50,596 bases of DNA from Candidatus Binataceae bacterium (GCA_050010455.1 JBEKLA010000002.1:1-50596), one strand, 5' to 3'; shown: positions 16,195-39,757, counted from the first letter of the stretch. The notes: generated from the sequence alone by a model not told the origin. Translations and numbers: made by a program.

Positions 16195-16272
16195 GGCGGC
16201 ATCAGGCGCGACGGCGCCGGCGGAATCGCGGAGGGCCGCCAATAGCCGCGCTTGCCCGCTCGAGTTGTTGCT

Positions 16273-17109: not shown

Positions 17110-17147
17110 GGCGATCGCGCCGCCGTTTCGCGCGCTTTCGAGCGCGC

Positions 17148-18065: not shown

Positions 18066-18153
18066 GGCATTCCATGCCAACGGGGAGACTGCTCGCGTTG
18101 GTCGAGTTTTCGGTTACCAACCGCTGCGCAGGCGAGCCCGGCCTTCTTAGAAA

Positions 18154-19152: not shown

Positions 19153-19155
19153 CGC

Positions 19156-20538: not shown

Positions 20539-20547
20539 CGGGCTTTG

Positions 20548-21444: not shown

Positions 21445-21448
21445 GTGC

Positions 21449-22348: not shown

Positions 22349-22353
22349 CGCGT

Positions 22354-23508: not shown

Positions 23509-23524
23509 CGAATTCGCACACGCC

Positions 23525-25564
23525 CTACGAGTGCATTTCAGCGAGGCGGCGGCGGAAGCGGCCCAACGCCATCAGCGGAAAGTAGTGCGGGTACAAGTAA
23601 TAACGCAAATAGAAATGATTCGGAAATCCGGTGCCGGTGAAGGCCTGTTCGTCCCAGGCGCCAAAGGCATTCTGGCGTTCCACCAGCCATCTGACGCCGC
23701 TTCTCACGTTGTCGCTGATAGCGTCTTCGCCCGCCAGCAGGCCGATCAACGCCCATGCGGTTTGCGACGCGGTGCTTTCGCCGCGGCCGTGCCAGAACGG
23801 GTCCTTGTCGCTAAGGCAGCTTTCGCCCCATCCGCCGTCGGGATTCTGCCTTTGCTTGAGCCATCGCACCGCGCGCTGGATCCATTCTTGATTGAGGTCT
23901 ACGCCGATCGCGCGCAATCCCGCCAGGGCGGAGAAAGTGCCGTAAATATAATTGACGCCCCATCGCCCCCACCACGAGCCGTCGATTTCCTGCTCGCGCT
24001 TGAGCCAATCGATAGCGCGGCGCGCTGTTGGATGTTCGGCGCGATAGCCCAGCGCGCCCATCATCTCCAGAACCCGCCCGGTAAGATCGGGGCAGCTTGG
24101 ATCGGTGACCGCCTCGACGTCGGCGAATGGCGCCTGACTAAGCCAGTGCGAGTCGTTGTCAACGTCGAAGGCAGCGAACCCGCCGTCGCGCGACTGCATG
24201 CCGATCACCCAGTTGCAACCGGCGCGAATCGCACGTTCCTTGGCCTCGCGATCGCCGATCGCGGTGCTAGCCAGCACGCACAGAATTACAGCCGAATCGT
24301 CCACGTCGGGGTAATGATCGTTGAAAAACTGGAATGCCCATCCGCCCGGCTCGAGGTCTGGCCGTTTGACCGACCAATCGCCGCGTCTGAAAACCTGATT
24401 GTCCAGGAACCATCTGGCCACTTTGGCGAGCGATTCGTCACGCGGGCTGAGATCGGATTCAAGCAGCGCCTTGGCGGCCAACGCGCTATCCCAGTTGGGG
24501 GATACGCACGGCATGCACAGCGCTTTGTCGCCGAAGTCCCAGATCAGCTCGCGCGAGGCTTCGAGCGCTTTGCGGACCACGGGATGCTCGTTGCGGTAGC
24601 CGAGCGCCTTGAGCGCCATCGTGCTCAGCAAGTAGCAAGGCTCGATTCCGCCCCACGAGCCATTGGCGTCCTGACGCTGTAGAATCCAGCTTTCAGCGCG
24701 CTGGATGGCGCGATCGCGCAAGCCCTTGAGATGGTGGCGATCATAGAACTTGAGCAGCTTGTCCGCGATGTTGAGCGCGTTGCGCAGCGACAGCAGCCGT
24801 CGGCCGCGGAGCGTGGCGAACTTGGTAAAATGAGGTGGCTGGATATAAAGCTCGAGCACGCCCTCGCGATATTCGACTTTGACCGTGGGGCGCATCGCCT
24901 GCAACAGCATCAGGCCGAACACCGTGCCGCGCGCCCACGAACTTAGTTCGTACACGTTTCCCGGGGACCAGTCGGGAAGCAGCGCCAGTTCTACCGGCAC
25001 GGCGGGCGTCGCATCCCACGGCACCTGGCCCATCGCGGCCAGGTAAAAGCGCGGCAAGGTGCCTGCGGCAGCGATTCCGCCGCGAGCGAGGATCCAGCGC
25101 CGCGCTTTGGCCATCGGCTCGTCGCCGGCCCGCATGCCCGCTAGCTTAAGGGCGAAGTAGGCCTCGATGCTGCTGGAGAGATAGCCTTTGCCGCCGGCGA
25201 ACAGGTTCCAGCTACCGTCGGGCTGTTGCAATTCCAGCAGCAGGCGCTTGAGCTTGGTTTCGAGCTCCAGATCGACGACGCCCATGAAACGGTTGAAGAT
25301 GATGAACTCGGCGTTCATCTGGGCGTTGGCTTCAAGCGGCGCGTGCCAATAGCCACGTTCGTTCTGAAGCGAGAGCAGGGAGTGCTGTGCGCGCCCGATC
25401 ACGCGATCGAGTTGGGTGGGGAAATCGGCCGGCGCGGAATCGATCGCGCGAGCCGCGAAGTTCTCGGCCTGAATGATGTCGCTCATATTTCCGGGCGCGC
25501 CGTTTACAACACCCAATTTCTCGTCAGGATCCAGGCCACTCGTGTTCGGGTCCAAGGCGACCAT
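23525..25564 (-). CDS. shc: Squalene-hopene cyclase
   Basis: QW repeats (QQPDGSW, QDANGSWGG, QNPDGGWGE), catalytic YPDVDDSA, GTGFP..FYLRY..Y; start at ATG 25564. Confidence 0.97.
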   Translation of the reverse strand: MVALDPNTSGLDPDEKLGVVNGAPGNMSDIIQAENFAARAIDSAPADFPTQLDRVIGRAQHSLLSLQNERGYWHAPLEANAQMNAEFIIFNRFMGVVDLELETKLKRLLLELQQPDGSWNLFAGGKGYLSSSIEAYFALKLAGMRAGDEPMAKARRWILARGGIAAAGTLPRFYLAAMGQVPWDATPAVPVELALLPDWSPGNVYELSSWARGTVFGLMLLQAMRPTVKVEYREGVLELYIQPPHFTKFATLRGRRLLSLRNALNIADKLLKFYDRHHLKGLRDRAIQRAESWILQRQDANGSWGGIEPCYLLSTMALKALGYRNEHPVVRKALEASRELIWDFGDKALCMPCVSPNWDSALAAKALLESDLSPRDESLAKVARWFLDNQVFRRGDWSVKRPDLEPGGWAFQFFNDHYPDVDDSAVILCVLASTAIGDREAKERAIRAGCNWVIGMQSRDGGFAAFDVDNDSHWLSQAPFADVEAVTDPSCPDLTGRVLEMMGALGYRAEHPTARRAIDWLKREQEIDGSWWGRWGVNYIYGTFSALAGLRAIGVDLNQEWIQRAVRWLKQRQNPDGGWGESCLSDKDPFWHGRGESTASQTAWALIGLLAGEDAISDNVRSGVRWLVERQNAFGAWDEQAFTGTGFPNHFYLRYYLYPHYFPLMALGRFRRRLAEMHS

Positions 25565-25566
25565 GA

Positions 25567-26664
25567 TTAGGGTATCACCGCGCACTTCAGAATCGCGCCG
25601 CGCTCGAGCAACTCGAACATCTCGCCCAACTCGCTCAGGCGCCGGCGGGCGTTGATGATTCGTCCGGCGTTGAGGGTCCTGTCGCGCAGCATCTCGAAGG
25701 CGAGCTTGACATCGCGGGGGCGGAAATGAAACGGCGCCAGCAGACTCAGATTGTCGTAATGCATCCGCCGCGTATCGACGCTCAGGCTGGTGTTGGCGGG
25801 GCATCCTCCGAAGAACACCACGCGTCCGCCGCGTCTCACCCAGCGCATCGACTCCTGCCATCCCGCGACCTGGCCGGTCGATTCGATCACCAGGTCGGGG
25901 CCGTGGCCGCCATTGAGGCGTGACATCTCGTGGGCGAGATCGGCTCGATCGATATCGATCACGAGATCGGCGCCCAGTTCGGCGGCCTTCTTGAGGCGAT
26001 TCTGTCGGCGGCCGGCGATCACCACCTGGCTTACGCCACGGGCCTTGAGCACGAGCAGATGCAACAGGCCAAACGGTCCCGCTCCCAGAATCAAGGCGGT
26101 TTCGAATTTCTCGGCGCGTGCCATCTCTTGAGCGTGGAGCACGCAGGACAGCGGTTCGAGCAGGGCTGCTTCTTCAAACGTCAGCGATGCGGGCTTCTTG
26201 AACGCGTTGCGCGCGACCACATGCGGCGGCAACAGGAGATAGTCGGCATAGGCGCCCAGCACCATCTGCTCCATGACTTGGGGGCAGAGATTCTCCTGAC
26301 CGCGATTGCAGTGGAAGCAATCGCCGCAGGGCGCCGTCGGCGCGGCCATGACAGAGTCGCCCACTTCGAACTTGTTCACGCCCTCGCCGACCTCGACCAC
26401 CACGCCTGAAAATTCGTGTCCGAACAGCGTCGGCAGATGGAACAGCGGATGGCCGCGGCGGAAGGTCTTCAAGTCTGTGCCGCAACTGAGCGCGCATTTG
26501 ATCGCGATCAGAACCGCGCCGGGTCCGGGACTGGGCGGTTCGAACTCGCGCAACTCCAAGCGGCCAGGGGCGACCAGCACCGCCTGACGCGGCCGTCCGG
26601 TCTCCGTCCACGTGCCCGCACGAGGCGGGCGATGATCGATTGCGATCGCGGCTTGATTATTCAC
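25567..26664 (-). CDS. Zinc-binding medium-chain dehydrogenase (polyol/sorbitol dehydrogenase-like)
   Basis: CGTD, GHEFSG, CGDCFHC..GQENLC structural Zn site, GAGPFG; GTG start overlaps ispA stop. Confidence 0.9.
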   Translation of the reverse strand: MNNQAAIAIDHRPPRAGTWTETGRPRQAVLVAPGRLELREFEPPSPGPGAVLIAIKCALSCGTDLKTFRRGHPLFHLPTLFGHEFSGVVVEVGEGVNKFEVGDSVMAAPTAPCGDCFHCNRGQENLCPQVMEQMVLGAYADYLLLPPHVVARNAFKKPASLTFEEAALLEPLSCVLHAQEMARAEKFETALILGAGPFGLLHLLVLKARGVSQVVIAGRRQNRLKKAAELGADLVIDIDRADLAHEMSRLNGGHGPDLVIESTGQVAGWQESMRWVRRGGRVVFFGGCPANTSLSVDTRRMHYDNLSLLAPFHFRPRDVKLAFEMLRDRTLNAGRIINARRRLSELGEMFELLERGAILKCAVIP

Positions 26665-27617
26665 AGATTTCGCTCCACCACGAAGCTTGCGATCCGGCGC
26701 AGCGCCTCGGCGCGCTCGTCGAAGGACGAGAGCGCCTGATGCGCGCGGATCACCAGGCTGCGCGCAAACTCACGCGACTGTTCGAGCCCGAGCAATGTGG
26801 GATAGGTGGCCTTGCCGCGGGCTTCGTCCTTATGCGTGCGCTTGCCCATCTGTTCGGTCGACGCCTCGACATCGAGAATGTCGTCGGCGACCTGAAAGGC
26901 GAGACCCAGCGCACGCCCGTAAGCACTCAACCTTTCCAGCTGATCCTCATCCGCCCCGCCCAGCCGAGCGCCGCCGCGAACCGCAGCCAAAAACAACGCG
27001 CCGGTCTTCTTGCTATGCAGATACTCCAATTGGTCGAGATTGGTGGGCACGCCTTCGCTCAAAATATCGATCGCTTGGCCAGCCACCATTCCTCCCGAAC
27101 CCGCCGCGTCCGCCAACTCCGCGACGACTTCCAGCACCACCGCGGGCGGCACACCTTCTCCGGAGCGGGCCAGCACCTTGAAGGCGTCAGTCAGCAGGGC
27201 ATCGCCGGCCAGCGTTGCCATCGCCTCGCCGTAGACCTTGTGATTGGTGGGCTTGCCGCGGCGCAGGTCGTCGTCGTCCATGCACGGCAGATCGTCATGG
27301 ATCATCGAGTAGGTGTGGATCATCTCGAGCGCGCAGCCGAGCCCGGTCGCGTTTTCAAGACGTCCGCCAACCGCTTCGCAAGCCGCCAGGGCCAACACCG
27401 GGCGAACCCGCTTGCCGCCGGCGAAAAGACTGTAGCGCATCGCCTCGAACAGCGATGCGGCGGAAGTTCCGGGCTGTTCAGGCAAAGCGTCCGCCAGAGC
27501 GGCCTCGATAAACCGGCAGCGCTCCTTCAGATAGTCGGCGAGGACCAAGCCGCCATCACGCGGCGACCCGGTACTCGGGCGGGAAGCTGTTACTCGATCT
27601 GACTTGGTGCTTTGCAT
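26661..27617 (-). CDS. ispA: Farnesyl diphosphate synthase (polyprenyl synthetase)
   Basis: GGKRVRP, IHDDLPCMDDDDLRRGKPT, KKTGAL, FQVADDILD, KATYP. Confidence 0.93.
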   Translation of the reverse strand: MQSTKSDRVTASRPSTGSPRDGGLVLADYLKERCRFIEAALADALPEQPGTSAASLFEAMRYSLFAGGKRVRPVLALAACEAVGGRLENATGLGCALEMIHTYSMIHDDLPCMDDDDLRRGKPTNHKVYGEAMATLAGDALLTDAFKVLARSGEGVPPAVVLEVVAELADAAGSGGMVAGQAIDILSEGVPTNLDQLEYLHSKKTGALFLAAVRGGARLGGADEDQLERLSAYGRALGLAFQVADDILDVEASTEQMGKRTHKDEARGKATYPTLLGLEQSREFARSLVIRAHQALSSFDERAEALRRIASFVVERNL

Positions 27618-27720
27618 CGCTTAATCGCTGGGCCCATAACCCGGACATCCGTTCGCTCAACCTCCGCGACTCAGACGCTCGGACGATCCGAACGCATCCC
27701 CTCTCGCCACCTTGACCCGC

Positions 27721-28731
27721 TCAAGAGATGTAATGACGCACCATCTGCCACGTGTCCTTCAGGTTCTTGCCGAAATCGAGCGCCACCGTTCCTTCGAAGC
27801 CCGAATGCAACTTGCAGTTGCGGCAGCGGATATCCTGCCTGGTCCGATAGAACTCCCAATCCGTGGCCGCGTGCATTTCTTTGAACGTCCGATAGTGACC
27901 GTTCGTTATAAGATAGCATGGACCCTTCCAGCCCTGCGGATTGCGCGTCACCGTCGTCCACGGGCTGCACAAGAGGTCACGCTCGCCGGCCAGAAACTGG
28001 AGATATATCGGGGTGTTGATAATCTTGTGATCGGAAGCGAGCTGCTTGATCTGCTTGAACTTGTACGGCATCTCGTCTGCTTTCAGATAGATGTCGTCGT
28101 TGGCGAGCACCTGATAGTGGTAGCCGGGCGTGAGCAGCATGCCGTCAACCCGCAGCCCCGTCAGCATCTGGATTAGCTCTTCAATTTCGTTGGAGCTGGT
28201 ATCGCGGAAAATCGTGGTATTGGTCTGGACCCGATAGCCCAGTTTCTTGAGCAGCTCGATCATCCGAACGCAGGTATCGAACACACCGTCACGATCCACG
28301 ACGCGATCGTGGGTTGACTTCATGCCGTCGATATGGATGTTGAAGCTGAGATAGGCGTTGGGCTCGACCTGCTTGACGAATCGTTCAAGCAACAGCGCGT
28401 TGGTACAGATCTGAACGTGGCGTTTGCGCTCGATCAGCCCTTTAGTGAGCGGCACGATATGCTTATACATGAGCGGCTCGCCGCCGCAGATCGAAACGAT
28501 CGGCGCGCCCGCCTCCTCCGCTGCCCCCAGCGCCTCTTCGAGCGGCATCTGATCGCGGATCGTGTCTTTGTACTCGACGATCCGCCCGCATCCGACACAG
28601 GCCAGATTGCAGGCATGCAAGGGCTCGAGCATCAGCACGATCGGAAAATATTTTTCGCCGGCCCGCTTCTTGGCGTTCATGTAGCGGGCCAAGTCAACCA
28701 TAAACCTTATAGGAACACGCATTTTCCCCAA
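27721..28731 (-). CDS. hpnH: Adenosyl-hopene transferase (radical SAM)
   Basis: VLMLEPLHACNLACVGCG, GGEPL, CSPW...GWKGPCYL, C..CKLHSGFE. Confidence 0.93.
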   Translation of the reverse strand: MGKMRVPIRFMVDLARYMNAKKRAGEKYFPIVLMLEPLHACNLACVGCGRIVEYKDTIRDQMPLEEALGAAEEAGAPIVSICGGEPLMYKHIVPLTKGLIERKRHVQICTNALLLERFVKQVEPNAYLSFNIHIDGMKSTHDRVVDRDGVFDTCVRMIELLKKLGYRVQTNTTIFRDTSSNEIEELIQMLTGLRVDGMLLTPGYHYQVLANDDIYLKADEMPYKFKQIKQLASDHKIINTPIYLQFLAGERDLLCSPWTTVTRNPQGWKGPCYLITNGHYRTFKEMHAATDWEFYRTRQDIRCRNCKLHSGFEGTVALDFGKNLKDTWQMVRHYIS

Positions 28732-28758
28732 CCATTCGCGCGCCGTAAGCGGCGCGAT

Positions 28759-29397
28759 TCAAGCTGCGCCAGCGGCCCCGGCCTCCGGCGCTTCGGGTGC
28801 CCCCTGGAACAAAAGCCCGGAGAGCATTTCGACCGGCCCCTGAAGATCGAAATCGGGCTTGCGGATAAACAATAGTTCGAGCAGGAAGCCGTTTAGCGCC
28901 GACAACAGGAAGCTTATCGTGCGCTCCGGATCCAGCTTCGACGAGCAAATTCCCTTGGCTTGGGCGCGACGAAACAGGTCAACCAACAGGCTCTGGTAGC
29001 CCTCGTAAAGCATGCGAATCTGGCTGGTAACGGCGTCAGGCACGTCATCGTCGTTCAGGATCCGGGTCAGGAAGAAGCGTACCGAGTTCGCGTTCTCGCG
29101 CACGAAGAGCAGGTACGATTCGATCAGCCGCCGCAATTGCGCGCGCTCGTCCAGTTCCCGTGATTCTTCGGCGAAATCGATATAATAGGGTTCGAGGAGC
29201 CGATTCAGCACCGCGATAAACAGCTCTTCCTTGGTCTTGAAGTGCCAGAAAATCAGCGCTTTGCTGACCTTGGCCTCACGCGCCACTTCCGCCATCGAAG
29301 TCTCATGAAAACCCCGTCCGGCAAAGATCTGCGTCGCGGCCTTTAGGATGTCATCCCGGGATTCCTGCGATTGTGCCCGCGATACGGCGCCAGTCAT
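28759..29397 (-). CDS. TetR/AcrR family transcriptional regulator
   Basis: ILKAATQIFAGRGFHETSMAEVAREAKVSKALIFWHFKTKEEL helix-turn-helix. Confidence 0.93.
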   Translation of the reverse strand: MTGAVSRAQSQESRDDILKAATQIFAGRGFHETSMAEVAREAKVSKALIFWHFKTKEELFIAVLNRLLEPYYIDFAEESRELDERAQLRRLIESYLLFVRENANSVRFFLTRILNDDDVPDAVTSQIRMLYEGYQSLLVDLFRRAQAKGICSSKLDPERTISFLLSALNGFLLELLFIRKPDFDLQGPVEMLSGLLFQGAPEAPEAGAAGAA

Positions 29398-29524
29398 CTG
29401 CGATTCCTAAGTCTGTCCAAGACATTAACGTTAACGTTGAGATCCCGCCCTCGATTGCGCTACCGACGGATCGTTCTGCACTCGAAGCAGCGATCCCCGA
29501 TCGCGCAGCCGTTCCACCAGCTCC

Positions 29525-29608
29525 TAACCTAGCGGTCAATGGCACACTTTTACCTTGCTCGATCGCAAAGTCAAGAGCCCGTCCGAGCGGTCAGTGACCG
29601 ATCGGTTA
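29525..29608 (-). promoter_or_regulatory. Putative tetR/hpn promoter with three palindromic operator-like 14-mers (29525-29538, 29580-29593, 29595-29608)
   Basis: TAACCTAGCGGTCA, CGTCCGAGCGGTCA and TGACCGATCGGTTA flank a minus-strand TTGACT (29574-29569) and a TAAAAGT -10-like element. Confidence 0.65.
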
Positions 29609-29646
29609 GGTTATCTACAGGCGTCGCGATTCAGGTTGGCGAGGTC

Positions 29647-30702
29647 TTAACTGCTCAAATCAATCGATGAGCCATCGGAATCATTAGATTGTCTTGCCGC
29701 GAGTATCAGAACTAAAGCTGTTCTCGCCTCTATGATATTGCTGGCGGCCGCACGCGGATTGGCGCCGGTCAACACGCTCTCGAACTCGGCGGCGAGATTA
29801 CCGAACCAGGCCGAATGATAGGAATCGTCGGGTGCGTCGGCGACCGACAGGTCTTCGCGCTTGCCTGACTGAGAGGTCAAAATGACGTGGTCGCCCTCGA
29901 TTTCCAGGATAGCCTTGCTGCCGTAAAGCATCGCCGACGTGCGGCGCACCGGCGCGCGCCACGACAGATGGACGTAACCGATTCGTCCGTCACCGAATCC
30001 GATGCCGAGGTCGGCAACCTCGTCGATTCCGCTTTCGCGATCGACGCCCAGGCGGGCGCTGATCGTCTCGGGCGCCCGATGGCCCATCAGCCAGTGCATC
30101 AGGTAGAAGATGTGCCATCCGTGATCGATCAGGATTCCGCCTCCGCTTGCCGCGCTGAGCCGCCACGGCGTCGTGCTCGGATGGCTCGCAGAGCTTCCGT
30201 GCGTGGATACCTCTGAAACGCCGCGTGCCTGTTCGGTTCGCAATCGGATCAGCGAGACATAGCGAAGCGCGCCGAGCCGGTCCTGAGCGACCAATTCGCC
30301 GGCCAATCGATAGGCCGGGGCATGCTTCCAGTTATGCACACAGAAGAGCGTGCGATTTCGCGAAGCGGCTAGCGCGGCCAAGCGGTCAAATTCTTCGAGG
30401 CTCAGGCAGAGCGGTTTTTCTATCAGCACGTGCACGCCCGCCTCCAGCGCCAGACGGGCAGCGGCGGGGTGATAAGCGGGTGGGCTTGCGATATCGAGGA
30501 AGTCGAGATGCTCGCCGTTGAGCATCAGTTCCAGATCCTCGTAGACCCGGACGTTGCGGATAAGTTTGAGCGCCTCGTGGCGCCGCTCGGCAAGCGGTTC
30601 GTGCACCGCGACGATTTCAACGTCCGGCCGCGTGCGCCATCCCGGCAGATGGCCCAGCGCCGCCACCTGGCCGAAACCCGATATCGCACCGCGCAGCTTC
30701 AT
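29647..30702 (-). CDS. Gfo/Idh/MocA family oxidoreductase
   Basis: ISGFGQVA..GH, HVLIEKPL, GGGILIDHGWH. Confidence 0.9.
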   Translation of the reverse strand: MKLRGAISGFGQVAALGHLPGWRTRPDVEIVAVHEPLAERRHEALKLIRNVRVYEDLELMLNGEHLDFLDIASPPAYHPAAARLALEAGVHVLIEKPLCLSLEEFDRLAALAASRNRTLFCVHNWKHAPAYRLAGELVAQDRLGALRYVSLIRLRTEQARGVSEVSTHGSSASHPSTTPWRLSAASGGGILIDHGWHIFYLMHWLMGHRAPETISARLGVDRESGIDEVADLGIGFGDGRIGYVHLSWRAPVRRTSAMLYGSKAILEIEGDHVILTSQSGKREDLSVADAPDDSYHSAWFGNLAAEFESVLTGANPRAAASNIIEARTALVLILAARQSNDSDGSSIDLSS

Positions 30703-30711
30703 CCGTTCGGT

Positions 30712-31581
30712 TCAGCGGCCAAGGCCCCACTGATGGGCCAGTTGTTCCAGCGCTTCTCCGGCGTTGCCCCGCTCCAGGCTCGGCGAATCGAGCACTAATC
30801 GATGGCAGCCCGCGTCACGGTACAAGGCGATCGCGCGTTGCGGATCGCCGTCGACTTGCGGGAAGTAGACCGAGATTTCCATACGGCTGAAATCGCGGCC
30901 CGCTTCAGCGCACATCTTTTTGAGCTTGGCGAGTTCCGTGGCCAGCCGATCGGGCGGCATTCTCAGCGGCGCCCATCCGTCGCCGATCGCAACCGTGTAT
31001 TTGAGCGCGCGATCCACGGGGCCGAGACCGCCCGCGCCGATATGAATCGGTGGATGCGGCTTTTGCGCCGGCTTCGGATAGGAGAACACCGGCGGAAACT
31101 TGACGAACTCGCCCTCGAAGGAGGCCTCGGGTTTGGTCCACAGCTCCTTCATCGCGCGGACGTAGTCGCGCGTGATGGCCCATCGCTTCGAGAAGTTGAC
31201 GCCCATGACCTCAGATTCGTCGATCAGCCATCCGGCGCCGATTCCGAGAATCAGGCGTCCGCCGCTGTAAAGGTCGAGCGTCGCGATTTCCTTGGCGAGG
31301 CCGATCGGCTCGTGCTCGGGTATCAAACAGACGCCGGTGCCGAGGATAAGTCGCTTGGTGGCGCTGGCGGCAAAGGCCAATCCGATGAACGGATCGACCA
31401 TGCGGGTATACATCTCCGGGATTTTGCCGTCGCCGACAGGGTAGGGCGTCTTGCAGTGAACGGGAATGATCGGATGCTCTGGAAGGAAGAACGACTCGAA
31501 GCCCAGCGCCTCGCATTTTTTCGCCACGGTTGCGGGATCGGGACTCTTGGGTGTGATCCAGGCCAGGATTCCGATTTTCAT
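30712..31581 (-). CDS. LLM-class (probably F420-dependent) oxidoreductase
   Basis: GFESFFLPEH, DPF, LGTGV, ATLD..SGGRLILGIGAGW, PKPAQKPHPPIHIG; start at ATG 31581. Confidence 0.9.
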   Translation of the reverse strand: MKIGILAWITPKSPDPATVAKKCEALGFESFFLPEHPIIPVHCKTPYPVGDGKIPEMYTRMVDPFIGLAFAASATKRLILGTGVCLIPEHEPIGLAKEIATLDLYSGGRLILGIGAGWLIDESEVMGVNFSKRWAITRDYVRAMKELWTKPEASFEGEFVKFPPVFSYPKPAQKPHPPIHIGAGGLGPVDRALKYTVAIGDGWAPLRMPPDRLATELAKLKKMCAEAGRDFSRMEISVYFPQVDGDPQRAIALYRDAGCHRLVLDSPSLERGNAGEALEQLAHQWGLGR

Positions 31582-31674
31582 ATGTCCTCCGCGCGGCATT
31601 CAGTGCCGCCCATTGAAATCGTGATGCTTGCTGGCGCGATCGCTGACCGCGTCACCATTGCGCCGCAGCGCCGA

Positions 31675-32154
31675 TCATTGACCGAAGCCGAAGAAATCCT
31701 TCGCGTAGATGAACTCGCCGACGCCCGCGTTGCGTGCGCATTCGGCGTCAACCTCCTGGTCGCCGACCATCGTCGATCCGGCCAGATCGATTCCGAAGGT
31801 CTTGGCGAGCTCTTTGATCATGCCGGGCTTGGGCTTGCGGCATTCGCATCCGTCGCTCGGCTGATGAGGACAGATCCGCCATCCGAACAGGACTCCGCCG
31901 AGTTGGCGATCGAGCTCGGTCATCGCGGCCTCGGCCTTTTCCACCGTGAAGCGGCCGCGTGCGACTCCGGCCTGATTGGTGACGACACAGATGAGGGCGT
32001 CGCGAATCGGACGAAGCTTGTCGGCCACTCCCGGCAGCAGCTCGATCTGGATATTGCCGGCGGCGTCCATCGGCAGTTCGCGGTTATGGTCAAACCTGAC
32101 CAGCGTTCCAACCAGATCGCAGAACAGCGCGCGGTTTCCGCTTTCGCCCGCCAT
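31675..32154 (-). CDS. HAD-IIIA phosphatase (GmhB/HisB-N-like)
   Basis: FCDLVGTLV, VTNQAGVARG, CPH..CECRKPKPGM, VGDQEVD. Confidence 0.88.
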   Translation of the reverse strand: MAGESGNRALFCDLVGTLVRFDHNRELPMDAAGNIQIELLPGVADKLRPIRDALICVVTNQAGVARGRFTVEKAEAAMTELDRQLGGVLFGWRICPHQPSDGCECRKPKPGMIKELAKTFGIDLAGSTMVGDQEVDAECARNAGVGEFIYAKDFFGFGQ

Positions 32155-32157
32155 TGC

Positions 32158-33522
32158 CTATGCCTCCGTCCGCCAGTCCAGATGGTCGCGCACGTAGGCG
32201 CACACTTCGTCGAGGATCGCGATCCCGGCCTCGGCCTGTGCTTCAGTAATCACCAGCGGTGGATTCAGCCGCACGTGCGGGAAGTAGCCCATCATCAGCA
32301 GGCCGCGCTTGAGCGCTTCCTTGAAGATGATTTCGGTTACTTTGCGGCTCATCTCGTGCTTGGTCTTGCGATCGCGCACCAGTTCGACTCCAATTAGCAA
32401 GCCGCGCCCGCGCACGTCGCCGATAAACTCGTACTTCTCTTTGAGTTCGAGCAGCCGCTTGAGCATCAGTGCGCCGACTTTGCGCGAGTTCTCGACCAGA
32501 TTGTCGCGTTGAATTGTGCGGATAGTTTCGGTTACGGCCACCGCTGCCAGCGGATTGCCGCCGTAACTCGACGAGGACGCGCTTGGCTTCGCAAACGGCT
32601 CCGCGGTAGCGAGGTCGTCGCCCAGAAGCACGCCCGAAACCGGATAACCCGAGCCCATGCCCTTGCCCACGGTCATGATATCGGGCTCGACGCCGCTATG
32701 TTCGACGCCCCACATCTTGCCGGTGCGTCCGAAGCCGGTGATCATTTCGTCGGCGATCAGCAGTGCGCCGTTGTCGCGCGCGATCTCTTTGACCGCGGGC
32801 AGGAAATCGTCGGGCGGAATCACGTTGCCGGCCGTGCCCTGGAACGGTTCGATAATCACCGCGGCCAGCGCGCCGCTCGAGCTATGCCTGAGCTGGTCAC
32901 GCGCGAACTCGACACAGAATAATCCGCACTCGGGATAATCGAGCTTGAACGGGCATCGATAACAATCGGCATACGGCACCGAGAACTGGCCGCCCGGCAG
33001 CGGCCCGTAGCCCCCCTTCGATTCGTCGCCGATCAGTCCGATAACGCCGCCAGTCTTGCCGTGGAAGCCGCCCCAGAAGCTCAGCACCTCGTGCTTCTTG
33101 GTGGCGCAGCGCGCCAGGCGCAAAGCCGCCTCGACCGCCTCGGCGCCGCCGCTATACAGATGGGAACGCTTGAGCCGGCCCGGCGCGACCTCGCCCAGCA
33201 GCCTGAAAACTTCCGCCCGCTCGGGCGTGGCGAAGGTGCCGACCATCAGGCGCGACGCTTGCGCCGATAACGCCTGAGCCAGACCCGGATGGCCGTGGCC
33301 GAGGGCCGCGACCGCGACGCCGGCAAAAAAATCGACGTAGACGTTGCCGTCCATGTCGGTCAGCGTCGCGCCGTCGCCGCGTTCGAAGGCGATACCCGCG
33401 AGCAGCGAAATGCGCTGGCGGCCAGGCGCAATATGACGCTGCTCGGCCTCGAATACTTGGCGCGACTTGGGGCCGGGAACCGGGACAGAAATCTTGGGAA
33501 GCTTTTCGCTTTTTACGCTCAT
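32158..33522 (-). CDS. Class III PLP-dependent aminotransferase
   Basis: [42 protein letters not shown] (PLP lysine), RGRGLLIG. Confidence 0.92.
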
Positions 33523-33535
33523 CCTGTGCGGGTGC

Positions 33536-34396
33536 TCATCCTCGTGTGACCGGCACCCTTATTCCTTTCGATTTTGAAGCGGCGTGAGCATACAGATCGA
33601 GGCATCGGCGCGCGATCGCTTGCGCGGCCTGCGCGCGTACCCGGCTGAAGCTCGGCCAGTCGTTAAAATCAATGATCGTGAAACCACGGTCGTTTACTAT
33701 AGCGTCGCCGCCCCATATTTCGAGCCCCAAAGCTGAAGCGGCGGCCTTTGCGGCGTCGGCCAGGGCTTGTTCGATCGACGAGGGAAGCGTTCCGCCGTCG
33801 CTGACGGCGGCAAAATATCCGCCGCCGCTGACCCCGTAGAACTTAACCACCGCTCCGTCAACCGCCTGTTGCAAATAGGCGGATTTAACCCCACGCGCGG
33901 CAAAACGTTCGATCACGGAGTGAAGCCGATCCGCGCTTTCAACTTTGACCACGTCTTCGGCGGTGAGGGCGTGCAGATCGCCGCGCTTGACGAAAACGCC
34001 GGCGCCGAGATCGAAGCGAGCGATCGATTGCGGCTCGACTATCGCGGATGTCCTTACCAGCAAGCCTGCGGGAGTTGGCACATCGGCTGCCTCCAGCGCG
34101 GCGCCGAGCCGATCGCGATAGCAAGCGCGAATCGCGCGCGGCGAATTGATCACCAAACCGCTGATTTCCTCGAGCGCGGCGAGTTTGCTCAACGCTCGTT
34201 CGCTCTGGCACATCGCAAGCACGAGATCGTAGCGTGCGGGCGTGGCTGTGACGAAGCTGTCGGCGTCGAGCGCCGAGATCTGAGCTTGGTCCGCTTTGAA
34301 ATGATCCAGCACCGAATCGAGGATGCCGGCGTCGTCGCCGACTTTACCCGGCGAGAACTCGGTCTCGCGGTAAACTCCGAGGATTCGCAACGTCAT
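33536..34396 (-). CDS. ATP-grasp-like protein of unknown function
   Basis: VINS, VFVKRGD, YLQQAVDG..VKFYGV, GGDAIV, IIDFNDWPSF (RimK/Ddl-like pattern). Confidence 0.7.
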   Translation of the reverse strand: MTLRILGVYRETEFSPGKVGDDAGILDSVLDHFKADQAQISALDADSFVTATPARYDLVLAMCQSERALSKLAALEEISGLVINSPRAIRACYRDRLGAALEAADVPTPAGLLVRTSAIVEPQSIARFDLGAGVFVKRGDLHALTAEDVVKVESADRLHSVIERFAARGVKSAYLQQAVDGAVVKFYGVSGGGYFAAVSDGGTLPSSIEQALADAAKAAASALGLEIWGGDAIVNDRGFTIIDFNDWPSFSRVRAQAAQAIARRCLDLYAHAASKSKGIRVPVTRG

Positions 34397-35145
34397 CTGC
34401 CGCTCCGCGGCGCGGGAGCGCCTTGGCGCCGATTCTCGCCTTCCACCATCGCGCGCGCCGCTTCGAGGTCCGCGGCCTCATCGATATCTATCGTTTCGCC
34501 GAGTTCGATCGCTTTCAAACGCCGTCCGTTCGCGACCAGATAGGAAAGGAACTGCCGCAGCGCTCCGCATCCGGATTCGCGCGCTCGCGCTGCGAAGTCG
34601 AAGATGCGAGTCGAGAAAACGTACACTCCAGCAGTAACCATCGACGCACGCTCGTCACCGAACGATTCGATCAGACCGCTGTTCGAGACGCTGACGAAAA
34701 GCGGGCGATGGTCGCCGCGCCAGCGCACCACTCCGAGCACACCGTCGAGAGCAGGCTCGGACTCGACTATCGCGAACGCGCCACTCGCGAAGCGTTCGAG
34801 TTCGCCCGGCGCCGTTACCGCATCGACGGTGGTGAGCAGGAAATAGCCCGGCGCAAGCCGCTCGCCCAGCGCGAACAGCGTCTCCATCGAGTTTGGCGTA
34901 TCGCGCACCGAGAGCATCAAGCCGTCGGGAATTGCGATCGCGTTTGCTGCGCGCAATCGCTCGGTCTCCGAATTGATCACGGCCAACACGCGTTCCGCGC
35001 CTGCCGCGATCAGCGCGCGCGCCTGCCGTATCAGCATCGGCTGGCCGGCGATCTCGACCAGCGGTTTGGGCAGCGCTTGTCCGCCCGCGCGCAATCGCTC
35101 GCCGTGTCCCGCGGCGATTATCGCGCCCTCGAAGCGCGCTACCAT
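34393..35145 (-). CDS. Sugar/polyol-phosphate nucleotidyltransferase
   Basis: AIIAAGHGERL...PKPLV, TAGVY, DIDEAADL; start at ATG 35145. Confidence 0.85.
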   Translation of the reverse strand: MVARFEGAIIAAGHGERLRAGGQALPKPLVEIAGQPMLIRQARALIAAGAERVLAVINSETERLRAANAIAIPDGLMLSVRDTPNSMETLFALGERLAPGYFLLTTVDAVTAPGELERFASGAFAIVESEPALDGVLGVVRWRGDHRPLFVSVSNSGLIESFGDERASMVTAGVYVFSTRIFDFAARARESGCGALRQFLSYLVANGRRLKAIELGETIDIDEAADLEAARAMVEGENRRQGAPAPRSGR

Positions 35146-35879
35146 CGAAGCTCCGTCAATTCGCGCAACTCGCTGATGATGTGATCGACGAGGCTTGCGT
35201 CTGCCTCGCGAATGGCTCTGCCATCCGACGACGTCCTTAGCCACACCGCGCGCATGCCGAGGCGGCGCGCCGGGAGGCAATCCTTATCCAGGGAATCGCC
35301 GACGATCGCGACTTGCGCGGCCGGGAGCGCGAATGCCGTGAGCGCGGCCTCGAAGATGCGCGGATCGGGTTTGAAGAGATTCACGCGTGTCGAATCAATA
35401 ACGATCTCGAACAATTCGCCCATCCGCGCTTGCGCCAGGATGCGATCGAGATTGCCGTAGAAATTAGATATCACGCCGAGGCGGAAATCTCGCGCAAGGG
35501 TTGTGAGCACCTCGCGGCTCGACGCCAATCCGCGATTCGTCTCCTCGACGAAGCCGGCGCTGATTTTTTCCGCCAGCGCATCGCGCCCTCCGTCGGCCGC
35601 TCTGACTTGCGCGCGAACCGGCTCAGGCCCGCGGCTCGACAGGTAATCTAGCTGTGCATCGACCAGGAATCGCACGAGTTCGCCAAGTCCCCGCTCGCGC
35701 ATCGCCGGGCCCGCTCCATAGCCGGCGTCGGTGCCGCAGGCGAACGCCGGGTCAAGCTCCTCGCGGGTGATGACGACGCCGGCGCGGCGATAGTTCGCCA
35801 GGAAGCGATCGAGCCAGTGGCTGCCGGGCAAATCGATCGTGCCACCGAAGTCGAACAAAAGCGCGCTTGGAGTCTTCAC
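35139..35879 (-). CDS. HAD-family hydrolase
   Basis: LFDFGGTID, ISNFYGN, KPDPRIF, VGDSLDKD. Confidence 0.88.
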   Translation of the reverse strand: MKTPSALLFDFGGTIDLPGSHWLDRFLANYRRAGVVITREELDPAFACGTDAGYGAGPAMRERGLGELVRFLVDAQLDYLSSRGPEPVRAQVRAADGGRDALAEKISAGFVEETNRGLASSREVLTTLARDFRLGVISNFYGNLDRILAQARMGELFEIVIDSTRVNLFKPDPRIFEAALTAFALPAAQVAIVGDSLDKDCLPARRLGMRAVWLRTSSDGRAIREADASLVDHIISELRELTELRW

Positions 35880-36064
35880 GGTTGCGTAGACATTAGCAGT
35901 CAGTAATCTCCGCCTCTAGGCGGGTAGCCGCAGCTAATAGTATCGGATAGGCTCCAAGCTGTTTTTTGAATCGCGCGCGCCGACGATCCCGACTGGATTA
36001 AAATCGAGTTTGCGGCAACGAAACCCTCTTGCCGAGAGCCATTACTTGTAACAATACTGATATT

Positions 36065-36109
36065 CGACCGCTCGGTCAGCCTACGTTGATTTGCCTGACC
36101 GATTGGTCT
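36065..36109. promoter_or_regulatory. Two operator-like 14-mers in the divergent intergenic region (36065-36078, 36096-36109)
   Basis: CGACCGCTCGGTCA and TGACCGATTGGTCT match the palindrome upstream of tetR. Confidence 0.65.
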
Positions 36110-36154
36110 AGGAGGTGCGTCTAAAATGATTTATTACAAAGTTTCAAGAACGGC

Positions 36155-37345
36155 GTGAAAAACGCGCTAATCTTCTCCGCGCCTGCGGGCGCCCAGACGC
36201 TATTCGGTCGCCCTCTGCTTGAGCGCGCTTTGACTCACTGCGAGCGAGCGGGAATCGACCGTTTCTTCGTTATTTGTCCGATTGAGCAGAGCTCGCAGCT
36301 TTCCTCGACCCTCGGACGCTTCGAGCGCGACGCGCGATTGAAAATAGTCGACTCAACAGACAATGTATTGCTTGAACCGAGCAGCTTGAAGGAGCCGTGC
36401 CTGGCGATCGGTGCCGACGTAGTCTTTGCGCGCTCTCAGATCAATATGTTGTTGCGCCATAGCGAGGCCAATCCCGGCGAAATTGCACAGATTCCGGTCA
36501 AGGATGGCGGGCCGGATTCTGTCCTGGCGGTCGGGCCGCTCGGCGAGATGCTCAAACGATCCGGAGCGTCGAAATCGCTCGCTGCGGGTCTCGATGGGAC
36601 GCTGCCGTTCGCCCTCGAAGCTAACCCCGGAGCGAACGCGCGAGCGGAAGTGGCGATGGCGCGGGTGCTGCGCTTCGAAACGGTCGAAACCGACGGCCTG
36701 ATGGCGCGTATAATGGATCGCAAAATCTCGTGGCGGCTCAGTTATCAGCTGGCGCGAACCGCGGTGACACCGAATCAAATCACGATTGCCAACACCGTCT
36801 TCGGCCTGATCGCCGCCTGGATGTTTGCCGGACACGGATACTGGCTGCCCTTGCTCGGATCGCTGTTGTTCCTGGCGTCGGTGACGATCGACGGAGTGGA
36901 CGGCGAGGTCGCGCGGCTCAAGATGGCGGAGTCGCCATTCGGCAAGCGGCTCGACGTGATCACAGACAATATCGTCAACGTCGCGGTTCTGGCCGCTATA
37001 GGAATAGGATGTTATCGACACAGTGGCAGCAAGACCTACCTTTATCTGCTGCCATTGTTCCTCGGCGGTTTCGCATCTTGCGCGGTAGCCGTCCAGCGCG
37101 CGTTGAACGTATGTGGAGCGCAAGCCGAAGGCTGGATCGGGCAAGTGGAAAGAATCTGCGGGCGCGATTTCGCCTACCTGTTGGTGGTGATGGCGGCGAT
37201 TAACCGCCTCAACTTCGTCGCCTGGGGAACCGCTTTCGGCACCTATGTTTTCGCCATCGGATTGTCGTGGATGACGAACAACCACGTGCGGTTCGCGGCC
37301 GGCGTCGCCGCGCCTGAGCGGCCCGTGGCGGCAGAGGGATTATGA
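36155..37345 (+). CDS. CDP-alcohol phosphatidyltransferase with degenerate N-terminal nucleotidyltransferase-like domain
   Basis: TPNQIT, D..DGEVARLK..ESPFGKRLD..TD signature, TM helices; N-terminus LFGRPLLERAL..C.RAGI. Confidence 0.88.
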   Translation: MKNALIFSAPAGAQTLFGRPLLERALTHCERAGIDRFFVICPIEQSSQLSSTLGRFERDARLKIVDSTDNVLLEPSSLKEPCLAIGADVVFARSQINMLLRHSEANPGEIAQIPVKDGGPDSVLAVGPLGEMLKRSGASKSLAAGLDGTLPFALEANPGANARAEVAMARVLRFETVETDGLMARIMDRKISWRLSYQLARTAVTPNQITIANTVFGLIAAWMFAGHGYWLPLLGSLLFLASVTIDGVDGEVARLKMAESPFGKRLDVITDNIVNVAVLAAIGIGCYRHSGSKTYLYLLPLFLGGFASCAVAVQRALNVCGAQAEGWIGQVERICGRDFAYLLVVMAAINRLNFVAWGTAFGTYVFAIGLSWMTNNHVRFAAGVAAPERPVAAEGL

Positions 37346-38670
37346 ATAAAAAACCGAGGATTCTCCTCGTTCAACCTACAACGGTTCATCTCGACGGCAC
37401 GCCCCATAAGACGCGATGGCGGCTGATCATGGGGCTGATGATCCCGCTGATAGCGGGACTAACCCCTGAGGATTTCGACGTTACGCTGTGCGACGAACGG
37501 CTCGAGGAGATCGACTTCGACGCCGGATGGGATCTGGTCGGCATGACCACCACGATCGGGGCGTCGCTGCGCGCCTACCAGCTCGGCGACGAATTCCGCA
37601 AACGCGGCATCCCGGTGGTGATGGGGGGCTTTCACGCCACGCTCCAGACCGACGAGGCGCTCAAGCACGCCGACGCGGTGGTGCAGGGCGAAGCCGACAC
37701 GGTGTGGGAGCCGCTGCTGCGCGATTGGCAGGACGGCAAGCTCAAGCAAATTTACAAGGCCGACAAGCTCCACGATTTGAAGAACCTGCCGCGCCCGCGC
37801 CACGAGTTGCTGAAGCTCAACCGTTACCTGTTCAAGGCGGTGCCGATTCAGGCCAGTCGCGGATGTCCCTATCGATGCTCGTTCTGCGAGATTCCGGTCT
37901 TTTACGACGGCTCGTACCGCACCCGCCCGATCGGGGATATCATTGAAGAAATCAAACAGGTGATGGAAATCACTGGCTTTCGCCGCTTCCAGTTTATCGA
38001 CGATCAGATCACCGGCAAGCACAAGTTTGCACGCGAGCTGTTCCGCGCCCTGGAGCCGCTCAACATCCGCTTCTCGTGTCTGTGGACGATCAATTCCAAT
38101 CACGACGACGAGCTGCTCGAACTGGCGGCCAAGGCCGGCGTCTTCCACGTCAATATCGGCGTGGAATCGATCAGCCAGGACAGCCTGATGTCGATGAACA
38201 AGATTCAAAATCACGCCAAGCAGTACAAGGAACTGCTCGCCAAGCTGAAGCGGTACGGAATCTACTACTCGCTCAATTTCCTGTTCGGGCTGGAGAACGA
38301 CGGTCCCACGATCTTCGACGATACGCTCAAGTTCCTGGACGAGGTCAAGGCGCCCGAGGCGTTCTTCAACACCGTCACACCGCGCCGGGGCACTCCGATG
38401 CGCCAGCAGCTCGAGGACGAGGACCGCGTCATCATTCCCGACGCCGACATGTACACCAACAACTTCCGCTGCATGTTCGTGCCCAGGAATCTCTCGCCGC
38501 AGGAGGTCGAAGAGGGCGTGTGGCGGTGCAACACCGAATTCTATTCGCTCAAGTCGATGTTCAAGCGGCTGCTGATGCCGCCCAGCAAATTCACCTGGCA
38601 GGGGCTTACCGAGAACGCGCTGTTTTACTGGGGCGCCAAGCAGCGAATCGATCCGGTCGATTATTACTGA
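37342..38670 (+). CDS. B12-binding-domain radical SAM protein
   Basis: GIPVVMGGFHAT..GEAD cobalamin-binding region, SRGCPYRCSFC CxxxCxxC, FIDD, GVES; start overlaps upstream stop. Confidence 0.92.
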   Translation: MNKKPRILLVQPTTVHLDGTPHKTRWRLIMGLMIPLIAGLTPEDFDVTLCDERLEEIDFDAGWDLVGMTTTIGASLRAYQLGDEFRKRGIPVVMGGFHATLQTDEALKHADAVVQGEADTVWEPLLRDWQDGKLKQIYKADKLHDLKNLPRPRHELLKLNRYLFKAVPIQASRGCPYRCSFCEIPVFYDGSYRTRPIGDIIEEIKQVMEITGFRRFQFIDDQITGKHKFARELFRALEPLNIRFSCLWTINSNHDDELLELAAKAGVFHVNIGVESISQDSLMSMNKIQNHAKQYKELLAKLKRYGIYYSLNFLFGLENDGPTIFDDTLKFLDEVKAPEAFFNTVTPRRGTPMRQQLEDEDRVIIPDADMYTNNFRCMFVPRNLSPQEVEEGVWRCNTEFYSLKSMFKRLLMPPSKFTWQGLTENALFYWGAKQRIDPVDYY

Positions 38671-38697
38671 GCCTCAGCGCGGCTCCGAGTCGAAATC

Positions 38698-38733
38698 GAA
38701 GGCCGGCGGCAACTTTTGTGGCCGCCGGCCTTC
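38698..38733. terminator. Strong hairpin after the radical SAM gene (probable intrinsic terminator)
   Basis: Perfect 13-bp inverted repeat GAAGGCCGGCGGC / GCCGCCGGCCTTC with a 10-nt loop. Confidence 0.65.
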
Positions 38734-38863
38734 ATCATGTGCGCCAAGAAAGCTACTTTTCTCTTTGCGTCGAAGAATCTCGCGCTGCAGCCGACGATCT
38801 CAAGGCGAGAAGCTTCATAACTCGACTATGGGCTCGTCGCTCGTTTCCTGCTAGCCAGATCCT

Positions 38864-39757
38864 GTGGGCCGGGGAGAGCAAGTGGTCGCGGTGCTGGGCG
38901 CGATTTTGCTGACGCTCAGCCTCGCCGCAGGGGGCGTGAGTTTTGCCGCCGAGACGGGTGCTGCGCCGCAGACGCTACACATCGCCGGGCTGGATGTTGC
39001 CGCCTGGATTCCGAATCGCGCGGCGCCCGGTCCCTGGCCAATCATAATTTTCTCGCACGGCTTTCACGGATGTAACACGCAGTCTACTTTTTTGACCGCT
39101 GCGCTGGCCGAGGCGGGTTATGCGGTCTTTGCCCCTAACCATCACGACGCTGCCTGCAAAGGACGGGGCCTCCTGCGCACCTGGCTCACGCGCCCCGACG
39201 TTCCTTTCGGCGATCCGCAGGAGTGGAGCGACGCCACTTATTACGATCGCGCCCAGGATGTCGAAAAACTTCTCGACGCGCTTAGCCGCGACCCGCAGTA
39301 TCGCGCGCCTCCTTTCGACTGGAATCATGTGGGGCTGATTGGCCATTCGCTCGGCGGCTATACCGTGCTGGGGGTTGGTGGCGGATGGAAACGATGGAAG
39401 GACCCGCGCGTCAAAGCGGTGCTCGCGCTCTCGCCTTACACTAATCCCTTCATCGAGCAGAAAACGCTGAGTGGTATCGGCGCGCCGGTGATGTATCAAG
39501 GCGGCACGCGCGATGTCGGTATCACGCCCTTCGTCAGGAAGAACGATGGTGCCTACGACGAGACTCCCACTCCAAAATATTACGTCGAGTTTGACGGCGC
39601 CGGGCATTTCGCCTGGACCAATCTGCGCAAGACGTACCAGTCGTTGATCGTCGCTTACAGCCGCGCCTTCCTCGATCGCTGTTTTAAAGGCAAGCCATTT
39701 CCCAGAACTCTTGCCGAGCCGCATCAAGGCGTCACAGCCGTCCGGATAAGCGAATAA
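38864..39757 (+). CDS. Exported alpha/beta hydrolase (PAF-acetylhydrolase/chlorophyllase-like)
   Basis: Signal-like N-terminus, IIFSHGF, GHSLGG nucleophile elbow, GTRD, GAGHF. Confidence 0.85.
   Translation: MGRGEQVVAVLGAILLTLSLAAGGVSFAAETGAAPQTLHIAGLDVAAWIPNRAAPGPWPIIIFSHGFHGCNTQSTFLTAALAEAGYAVFAPNHHDAACKGRGLLRTWLTRPDVPFGDPQEWSDATYYDRAQDVEKLLDALSRDPQYRAPPFDWNHVGLIGHSLGGYTVLGVGGGWKRWKDPRVKAVLALSPYTNPFIEQKTLSGIGAPVMYQGGTRDVGITPFVRKNDGAYDETPTPKYYVEFDGAGHFAWTNLRKTYQSLIVAYSRAFLDRCFKGKPFPRTLAEPHQGVTAVRISE

Follow-up and report, generated by a model that had tools for sequence, protein, structure and literature searches.

A palindromic element at hopanoid and isoprenoid gene promoters of a Candidatus Binataceae genome as the probable operator of an autoregulated TetR repressor

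The question raised by this locus is why a short palindrome recurs around the promoter of a tetR gene that precedes a hopanoid operon, and again 6.5 kb away in front of a CDP-alcohol transferase gene. The locus lies in a 50,596-nucleotide stretch of DNA (the window) from a genome of the family Candidatus Binataceae, phylum Candidatus Binatota (GCA_050010455.1, JBEKLA010000002.1:1-50596). An original prediction, made from the DNA alone, had read the element as five copies of TGACCGNNCGGTCA that join the hopanoid operon and two divergent head-group operons into one TetR regulon. Our analysis suggests, with a probability of about 0.8, that the element is the operator of a TetR repressor, the product of 28759-29397, which controls its own gene and a hopanoid/isoprenoid regulon. 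This regulon extends beyond the one first proposed, to hpnJ-hpnI, a gene for a 625-aa radical SAM protein, ispH, and uppP.

All five sites were found at the predicted coordinates, but none was an exact copy: TGACCGNNCGGTCA had no match within the window. The sites at 29525-29538 (TAACCTAGCGGTCA), 29580-29593 (CGTCCGAGCGGTCA), and 36096-36109 (TGACCGATTGGTCT) differed from it at two positions, and those at 29595-29608 (TGACCGATCGGTTA) and 36065-36078 (CGACCGCTCGGTCA) at one. Two extra matches with up to two mismatches, at 29866 (within a GFO/IDH/MocA gene) and 42807, brought the window to 7, against 3.1 expected; 4 of 100 shuffles reached 7. The whole genome (4,567,222 bp) held 222 such matches. 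By itself, the mismatch count in the window is weak evidence. Since it was only marginal, it was replaced by an independently trained matrix.

The matrix was symmetric, 16 bp long, and trained on 38 sites (24 proximal and 14 distal) from the tetR promoters of other genomes; the present genome was excluded from training, and the scan covered its whole length of ~4.57 Mb. One training site came from an unpublished genome (G018), which also contributes one row to each of the family counts given below for tetR, the transferase, hpnJ, ispH, and the 625-aa radical SAM gene. Without G018, numerator and denominator each fall by one, and no claim depends on it. A weight-matrix scan had been proposed as a check on the original prediction, and it placed all five sites among the 13 best of ~4.57 million genome positions. 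The site at 29524 was the best in the genome (score 21.07), 36095 was joint third (18.93), 36064 was 10th (18.05), 29594 was 11th (16.57), and 29579 was 13th (16.26). Ten sites scored at least 18, against 0, 1, 2, 2, and 3 in five third-order Markov genomes; at 16 or more there were 14, against 4-8.

Eight of the ten top sites were non-coding. Besides the tetR site and the two of the transferase operon, they comprised a 16-mer identical to the 36095 site and 114 bp upstream of uppP (C100:4643, 18.9), one at the 625-aa radical SAM gene (C128:9030, 18.6), one 18 bp upstream of hpnJ (C135:10573, 18.2), one adjoining an IS1-like gene (C47:4098, 19.9), and one on the downstream side of lspA (C195:754, 18.75). 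The other two were in coding sequence (C6:7442, 18.6; C22:9614, 18.57), as was a lower-scoring site at C40:21500 (16.32). A further operator-like sequence, at 29865 within the GFO gene, scored 16.12. The perfect form TGACCGAGCGGTCA occurs once in the genome, 29 bp upstream of ispH. From 121 collected sites, the 16-bp operator has the pseudo-palindromic, symmetrised consensus CTGACCGATCGGTCAG, which is partly circular because these sites were gathered with the matrix. The second-best match, C47:4098, lies between an IS1-like transposase gene and small open reading frames, near an anaerobic sulfatase maturase gene, and may be a chance match or a relocated site. At C195:690-770, two operator-like sites ~45 bp apart stand just downstream of lspA and adjoin a 70-aa Xis/MerR-like helix-turn-helix reading frame, with no apparent isoprenoid link. 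A repetitive extragenic palindromic (REP)-like or mobile repeat was ruled out by the presence of only ~10 strong copies, placed at promoters.

The strongest site has the position of a repressor site. It had been predicted that the 29525 copy sits just downstream of a -10-like element, and the minus strand indeed reads TTGACT, 16 nt, TAAAAG, 6 nt, and then the operator, a sigma-70-type layout that is conserved in relatives. The -35 hexamer TTGACT is at 29569-29574 and the -10 element TAAAAGT at 29546-29552 (TAAAAG, 29552-29547; relatives' consensus TAnAGT), both on the minus strand. Operator O1 (29524-29539, minus strand, TTGACCGCTAGGTTAG) starts 6 nt past the -10 and covers the point at which tetR transcription is predicted to begin. 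Operator O2 (29579-29594, minus strand, CTGACCGCTCGGACGG) ends 4 nt upstream of the -35 and is abutted by the operator-like O3 (29594-29609, GTGACCGATCGGTTAG). Anchored on the operator, the 25 tetR loci compared, this genome included, gave the conserved order cTTGACTTT, 16-17 nt, TAnAGT, ~6 nt, and TTGACCGNNNGGTTAG. A simple consensus promoter/terminator scanner called neither this promoter nor that of the transferase, with counts at shuffle level; both promoters were read from the cross-genome comparison.

Phylogenetic footprinting bore out the conservation expected upstream of tetR orthologues. The exact proximal site, TGACCG-N3-GGTTA, was present in 25 of 25 loci and in 80 of 80 further Binataceae loci, and was absent upstream of five of five out-of-family TetR homologues. 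A TTGAN hexamer was found in 79 of the 80 further loci, and in 73 of these it stood 33-35 nt upstream of the operator start. The distal, O2-type site occurred in 14 of 24 relatives and in 60 of the 80 further loci, at 53-57 bp from O1 in 57 of the 60. For O3, no counterpart (position -211, up to two mismatches) was found in L002 and L003, the two same-genus relatives to which this comparison was limited. Sites comparable to the operator-like sequence at 29865-29880, in the 3' part of the GFO/IDH/MocA gene, were seen 282-364 bp upstream of O1 in 21 of the 80 relatives; they may be auxiliary operators, or a by-product of coding sequence or of a conserved peptide.

The same matrix was applied, at a threshold of 11, to the 350 bp upstream of each orthologue of the unlinked targets. 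In 23 of the 24 loci that could be tested for hpnJ-hpnI (contig ends lay too near in three more), the promoter had the element, nearly always as CTAACCAAKCGGACAG and 4-6 nt past a TATAnT -10. For the 625-aa radical SAM gene it was found in 22 of 23 orthologous loci and in none of five paralogues, directly past a TTGACT-N17-TTTACT-like promoter. The frequency was lower at ispH (13 of 25 loci) and uppP (8 of 20). In the relatives' target windows, we counted 67 matches in 34,968 bp, against 12 in 368,496 bp of flanking DNA from the same relatives. This is an enrichment of ~60-fold, and the element is thus far above the background rate. Between the -10 and the start of the operator there are 0-6 nt at tetR, hpnJ, and the 625-aa radical SAM gene, the classic position of a repressor site. 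The orientation of the site relative to the gene varied between targets, as expected if a DNA palindrome is recognized.

The Binatota-specific 625-aa radical SAM protein (C128:9030-10976; orthologues L233-L256) combines a membrane helix at its N terminus with a weak B12-like region. Candidatus Binatota predominate in its language-model cluster, and the spacer of the gene's promoter holds a conserved GGTCGGGATTAG-like block too. In one genome only, an operator follows the TTGACT-N17-TAGGTT promoter of an IscA/HesB-type Fe-S carrier gene (L267, G005 C1:1866207), which would be in keeping with a regulon in which Fe-S and radical SAM enzymes abound.

The two remaining sites of the window belong to the operon at 36155-39757 (plus strand, identified by Pfam and NCBIfam). 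It comprises genes for a 396-aa protein with a CDP-alcohol phosphatidyltransferase domain (36155-37345; PF01066, 44.5 vs. a cut-off of 22), a B12-binding radical SAM protein (37342-38670), and perhaps an alpha/beta hydrolase (38864-39757). Its proposed promoter, at 36086-36114 on the plus strand, consists of TTGATT (36086-36091), 17 nt, and TAGGAG (36109-36114), to judge from the TTGACT-N17-TAGnAn or TAAAAA that relatives show at the same place. Operator O4 (36064-36079, TCGACCGCTCGGTCAG) lies 6 nt upstream of the -35-like TTGATT, and O5 (36095-36110, CTGACCGATTGGTCTA) within the -35/-10 spacer. In relatives, sites at this promoter lie in the spacer like O5, overlap the -35 (TTGACTCATCGGTCAG), or stand just upstream of the -35 like O4, the last in L032, L035, L043, and L048. 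The O5 16-mer is identical at the same place in L044 and L055 and near-identical in L039. Among 28 testable loci, an operator was found within 350 bp upstream in 15 at a score of at least 13 and in 18 at a score of at least 10. These loci include six genomes in which transferase and tetR are on different contigs (G007, G008, G011, G013, G014, and G017). The transferase and radical SAM genes are adjacent in nearly all relatives.

Co-regulation had been predicted for both operons that diverge from this intergenic region. The operators in 15 of 28 loci uphold it for the CDP-alcohol transferase/radical SAM operon, but not for the HAD/NTP-transferase operon: O4 and O5 are 185-230 bp from the start of the HAD gene, which has a -10 of its own. 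This conserved TGATAAACT-like element, near the HAD gene start, lies ~150 bp from O4/O5, and the operon from the HAD to the GFO gene is therefore not counted as a target; control from O4/O5 was rejected. The intergenic region varies in length from ~180 to more than 1000 bp in relatives.

The candidate regulator is a 212-aa protein (28759-29397, minus strand) with a TetR_N domain at residues 17-63 (PF00440, 67.2 bits vs. a cut-off of 24). It has the features of its family: this domain, an all-helical C-terminal domain, and, in silico, a palindrome at its own promoter (25/25 and 80/80 loci). The Pfam models TetR_C_24 and TetR_C_13 fell just under their cut-offs. Among the 19 NCBIfam models listed, no named subfamily reached its cut-off; the best was MtrR (70.1 vs. 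280 bits), and FadR, FabR, and FasR gave weak sub-threshold matches. The closest solved chain matched at 66.7 bits and is no close relative. An AlphaFold2 (AF2) model has the canonical all-helical fold, with nine helices and a mean pLDDT of 82, and its top Foldseek matches were all of the TetR family (TM 0.6-0.8), including Bacillus and Thermus FadR. Since the neighbours of the model by Foldseek and by PDB sequence are generic TetRs, no ligand can be named. Orthologues (52-82% identity) were present in 24 of the 24 same-family genomes searched, with a nearly invariant helix-turn-helix, and the recognition helix VSKALIFWHF is kept in out-of-family homologues (39-46% identical). The genome has no close paralogue, and only the protein itself matched at E<=1e-20.

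These features suggest how the system could work. A TetR dimer on O1 would block initiation at the tetR promoter, and a second dimer on O2, ~55 bp or five helical turns away, could help the first. With O1 over the start and O2 just upstream of the -35, the bound repressor would bracket and occlude RNA polymerase. Occlusion would turn off not only tetR but also hpnH, ispA, shc, dxr, hpnCDE, hpnA, and hpnK; since tetR heads the operon, its autoregulation would be tied directly to the hpn genes that follow. The repressor would also act at hpnJ-hpnI, the 625-aa radical SAM gene, and the transferase operon, and less consistently at ispH and uppP. By sharing an operator, these promoters would allow one repressor to coordinate precursor supply, squalene and hopene synthesis, side-chain formation, and uncharacterized lipid-modifying enzymes. 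A hydrophobic pathway metabolite would release or modulate the TetR, in either direction; by analogy with other lipid-sensing TetRs, its ligand is likely hydrophobic.

We infer from sequence comparison that this TetR binds the sites and represses, and several points weigh against such a reading. The motif is assigned to the TetR from two things, its autoregulatory position and its co-conservation with the gene; binding, repression, and a ligand effect in the uncultured Binataceae are predictions. The genomes compared are kin and hence non-independent samples, and conservation is partial (40-54%) at ispH, uppP, and the transferase. A strict IUPAC pattern gave 21 sites in five near-complete relatives, vs. 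23 for a reversed-pattern control, and only the locations are non-random: 14 of the 21 are at hpnJ (5), the 625-aa radical SAM gene (5), ispH (2), tetR (1), and the transferase (1). Outside the family, two of six hpnJ loci carry a good site, in genomes whose TetR is only 39-43% identical and lacks a site at its gene; three more out-of-family genomes with a comparable TetR homologue have none at hpnJ. From this mixed pattern it follows that the presence and absence of TetR and site do not track cleanly. The gene of a different TetR paralogue, of the TetR_C_21 type (L276, G024 C5:688430), has a similar palindrome, TTAACCGTGCGGTTAA, so related operators can belong to other regulators. Finally, O1 always has the imperfect GGTTA form and never GGTCA, in 105 of 105 loci, and a simple preference for palindromes does not explain this fixed asymmetry.

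Some of these points could also mean that the element is a real cis-regulatory site bound by another factor, a TetR paralogue or an unrelated regulator, with tetR merely one of its targets. The identity of the binder is indeed a matter of inference, the G024 paralogue carries its similar palindrome, and hpnJ sites occur in G029 and G032, where the tetR is not linked to hopanoid genes. We nevertheless consider this unlikely: the promoter of this tetR gene has the site in all 105 loci, and at its strongest; the helix-turn-helix of the protein is nearly invariant; and the genome holds no close paralogue. The recognition helix is also shared by the out-of-family homologues, so a related protein could serve the sites in G029 and G032. 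Those two sites (L202 and L204, respectively) score 21.2 and 15.6 and lie 75-81 bp upstream of hpnJ, and no hopanoid-linked tetR was found there.

The fixed form of O1 brings up a signal in RNA, that is, a 5'-terminal hairpin through which the stability or translation of the tetR, hpnJ, and radical SAM mRNAs would be affected. The sites begin at about +1 at three promoters, and the O1 arms TGACC and GGTTA, whose imperfect DNA form is invariant in the 105 loci, would pair fully only as RNA, through a G-U pair. Such a hairpin is very unlikely, however, because O2, O4, and many transferase sites are upstream of the -35 or in the promoter spacer, and so untranscribed from that promoter, and because orientation to the gene varies between targets. 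Rfam gave no family in either intergenic region; its sole match was a sub-threshold snoRNA model within the aminotransferase gene of the divergent operon. Hardly credible at all is a chance or compositional cluster of GC-rich near-palindromes without function. It would agree with the lack of an exact copy in the window, with a window count barely above shuffles, and with the strict-pattern count, which is not above its control; yet a matrix trained independently ranks the sites at the top of the genome, Markov genomes yield fewer, enrichment in the relatives' target windows is ~60-fold, and the position relative to -35 and -10 is conserved across more than 100 genomes. An operator bound by this TetR is thus the explanation that we prefer.

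The gene order downstream of tetR, which had been given as hpnH-ispA-adh-shc-dxr-hpnCDEA, was confirmed with Pfam and NCBIfam. All genes from 35879 down to 15328 are on the minus strand, with a gap of 249 bp between the end of the GFO gene (29647) and tetR. The hopanoid/isoprenoid genes (15328-28731, minus strand, identified by Pfam and NCBIfam equivalogs) begin with hpnH (27721-28731; HpnH, 380 vs. a cut-off of 225), a polyprenyl synthase gene (ispA, 26661-27617), a Zn-dependent alcohol dehydrogenase gene (adh, 25567-26664), shc (23525 to ~25500; SHC, 727 vs. 431), and dxr (22354-23508; above the NCBIfam cut-off). They continue with hpnC (21449-22393; 324 vs. 250), hpnD (20548-21471; 324 vs. 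279), hpnE (19156-20538; 428 vs. 283), and hpnA (18154-19152; 460 vs. 368). A CruF-like membrane protein (17148-18080; weak match) lies between hpnA and the gene of a 560-aa HpnK-domain protein (15328-17010; HpnK, 277 vs. 233). HpnK is the C-terminal half of this protein (residues 273-552), and its N-terminal half has no assignment. Unlinked to tetR, hpnJ (HpnJ, 718 vs. 578) is followed by hpnI (HpnI, 315 vs. 310). Each of these hpn-set proteins (SHC, HpnC, HpnD, HpnE, HpnH, HpnA, HpnK, HpnJ, and HpnI) is thus above its NCBIfam cut-off.

Common strand and short gaps suggest that tetR is co-transcribed with the hopanoid genes. In the 25 loci, hpnH was next to tetR in all 25, ispA followed in 24, and the GFO gene preceded in 22; three out-of-family hpnH loci had neither an adjacent tetR nor a site. 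Near-identical DNA for 27700-31700 of the window was seen in peat-metagenome runs: at least half of the sampled words were present in four runs, each from a different study, besides a possible source run. One metatranscriptome run contained ~5% of the sampled words and yielded short fragments, mostly from relatives, with no start, end, or operon-spanning piece.

Regarding the transferase operon, a reading frame of 10 codons (MIYYKVSRTA) at 36126-36158 on the plus strand has a perfect AGGAGG 8 nt before it, and it ends in a TGA that overlaps the transferase gene's GTG start codon (GTGA). In the same-genus relative L032, a 15-codon upstream frame (1457-1504) ends in the same GTGA overlap. This frame may provide translational coupling or a leader peptide. 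An assignment of the 396-aa transferase as an IPCT/DIPPS-type bifunctional CDP-inositol enzyme was rejected (NF041135, 80.2 vs. a cut-off of 580, residues 178-302 only); its N-terminal ~175 residues match no family. The divergent operon (29647-35879, minus strand, identified by Pfam and NCBIfam) encodes, in order, a HAD hydrolase, an NTP-transferase, a weakly ATP-grasp-like protein, a class-III aminotransferase, a small HAD-like protein, an F420-type LLM oxidoreductase (TIGR03619, 242 bits vs. a cut-off of 167), and the GFO/IDH/MocA protein. The last is inositol-dehydrogenase-like, the module holds two HAD phosphatases, and it reads like an aminocyclitol or sugar-phosphate head-group pathway.

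A bolder reading, which we consider possible but rather doubtful, is that the operator marks a complete, dedicated hopanoid regulon. It would then assign three uncharacterized enzyme sets to hopanoid chemistry (the transferase/B12-radical SAM operon, the aminocyclitol-like module, and the membrane-anchored 625-aa radical SAM protein) and point to a new composite hopanoid, and the TetR would be the first sensor of a hopanoid or isoprenoid intermediate. If so, the Binataceae might make a hopanoid whose head group is, for example, a phospho-linked (amino)cyclitol, or one newly modified by a radical SAM enzyme, and the TetR might keep the triterpenoid content of the membrane steady.

To our knowledge, how bacteria set the amount of hopanoids is largely unknown. 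The element is most likely the docking site of this TetR and, as such, would be the first dedicated on/off switch to be put forward for hopanoids, which are steroid-like lipids of bacteria. Embedded in the pathway and with a sharply defined operator, the repressor would be a switch open to direct testing, without the need to culture Binataceae. The regulon would also serve as an annotation tool: it ties ispH, dxr, and uppP (precursor flux) to the hpn genes and makes the uncharacterized radical SAM and CDP-alcohol transferase enzymes candidates for lipid modification alongside them. The Binataceae are a globally distributed, uncultured soil and peat lineage, and their lipids may contribute to the sedimentary hopane record. 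The interest lies chiefly in hopanoid biology and in the uncharacterized enzymes drawn in; this kind of regulation is itself familiar.

The original prediction knew of no characterized repressor dedicated to a hopanoid cluster, and none appeared in the portions consulted of the full-text literature on hopanoids, TetR and other repressors, and Binatota. The words TetR, regulator, repressor, and transcription do not occur in the available text of one preprint (10.1101/2025.07.29.667474); its supplement and that of PMC8262859 may list cluster neighbours or regulators. The only precedent that we traced in the available portions of these sources for transcriptional control of a hopanoid gene is that of hpnP by EcfG in Rhodopseudomonas palustris (Kulkarni et al., 2013, J Bacteriol 195:2490, via PMC4620461). 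EcfG is a general-stress extracytoplasmic function (ECF) sigma factor that acts on a single methylase gene, whereas the TetR would be a repressor dedicated to the pathway, with its gene in the hpn cluster and operators throughout.

Classical TetR/QacR pairs share with this system the N-terminal helix-turn-helix (PF00440), the all-helical ligand domain, and an imperfect palindrome of ~15 bp over the regulator's own promoter. In those pairs, control typically falls on one adjacent, divergent efflux or catabolic gene; the present regulator would act on six or more dispersed promoters and is probably co-transcribed with its biosynthetic targets. Closer in subject are FabR, DesT, and the FadRs of Bacillus and Thermus, the last among the Foldseek neighbours, which are also TetR-fold regulators tied to membrane-lipid genes. 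FabR and DesT link membrane-lipid gene expression to a lipid-derived ligand, acyl-CoA. Unlike the present regulator, this group governs membrane fatty-acid metabolism through acyl-CoA ligands; the targets here are isoprenoid and hopanoid genes, and the matches were far under the family cut-offs.

The nearest analogue in design is KstR. KstR and KstR2 of mycobacteria are TetR-type repressors of cholesterol-utilization regulons that were defined by a conserved motif (PMC1995591, PMC3068626). The two proteins, KstR and this TetR, are not close, as no named NCBIfam equivalog was reached. The KstR motif, which we take to be TnnAACnnGTTnnA, differs from the operator found here. KstR acts on the catabolism of host sterols in Actinomycetota, whereas the targets in Binatota would be biosynthetic (methylerythritol phosphate (MEP) pathway, squalene, hopene, and side chain). 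What the two would have in common is an autoregulated TetR-type repressor whose short palindromic operator is repeated at many promoters of genes for polycyclic, triterpenoid-type lipids.

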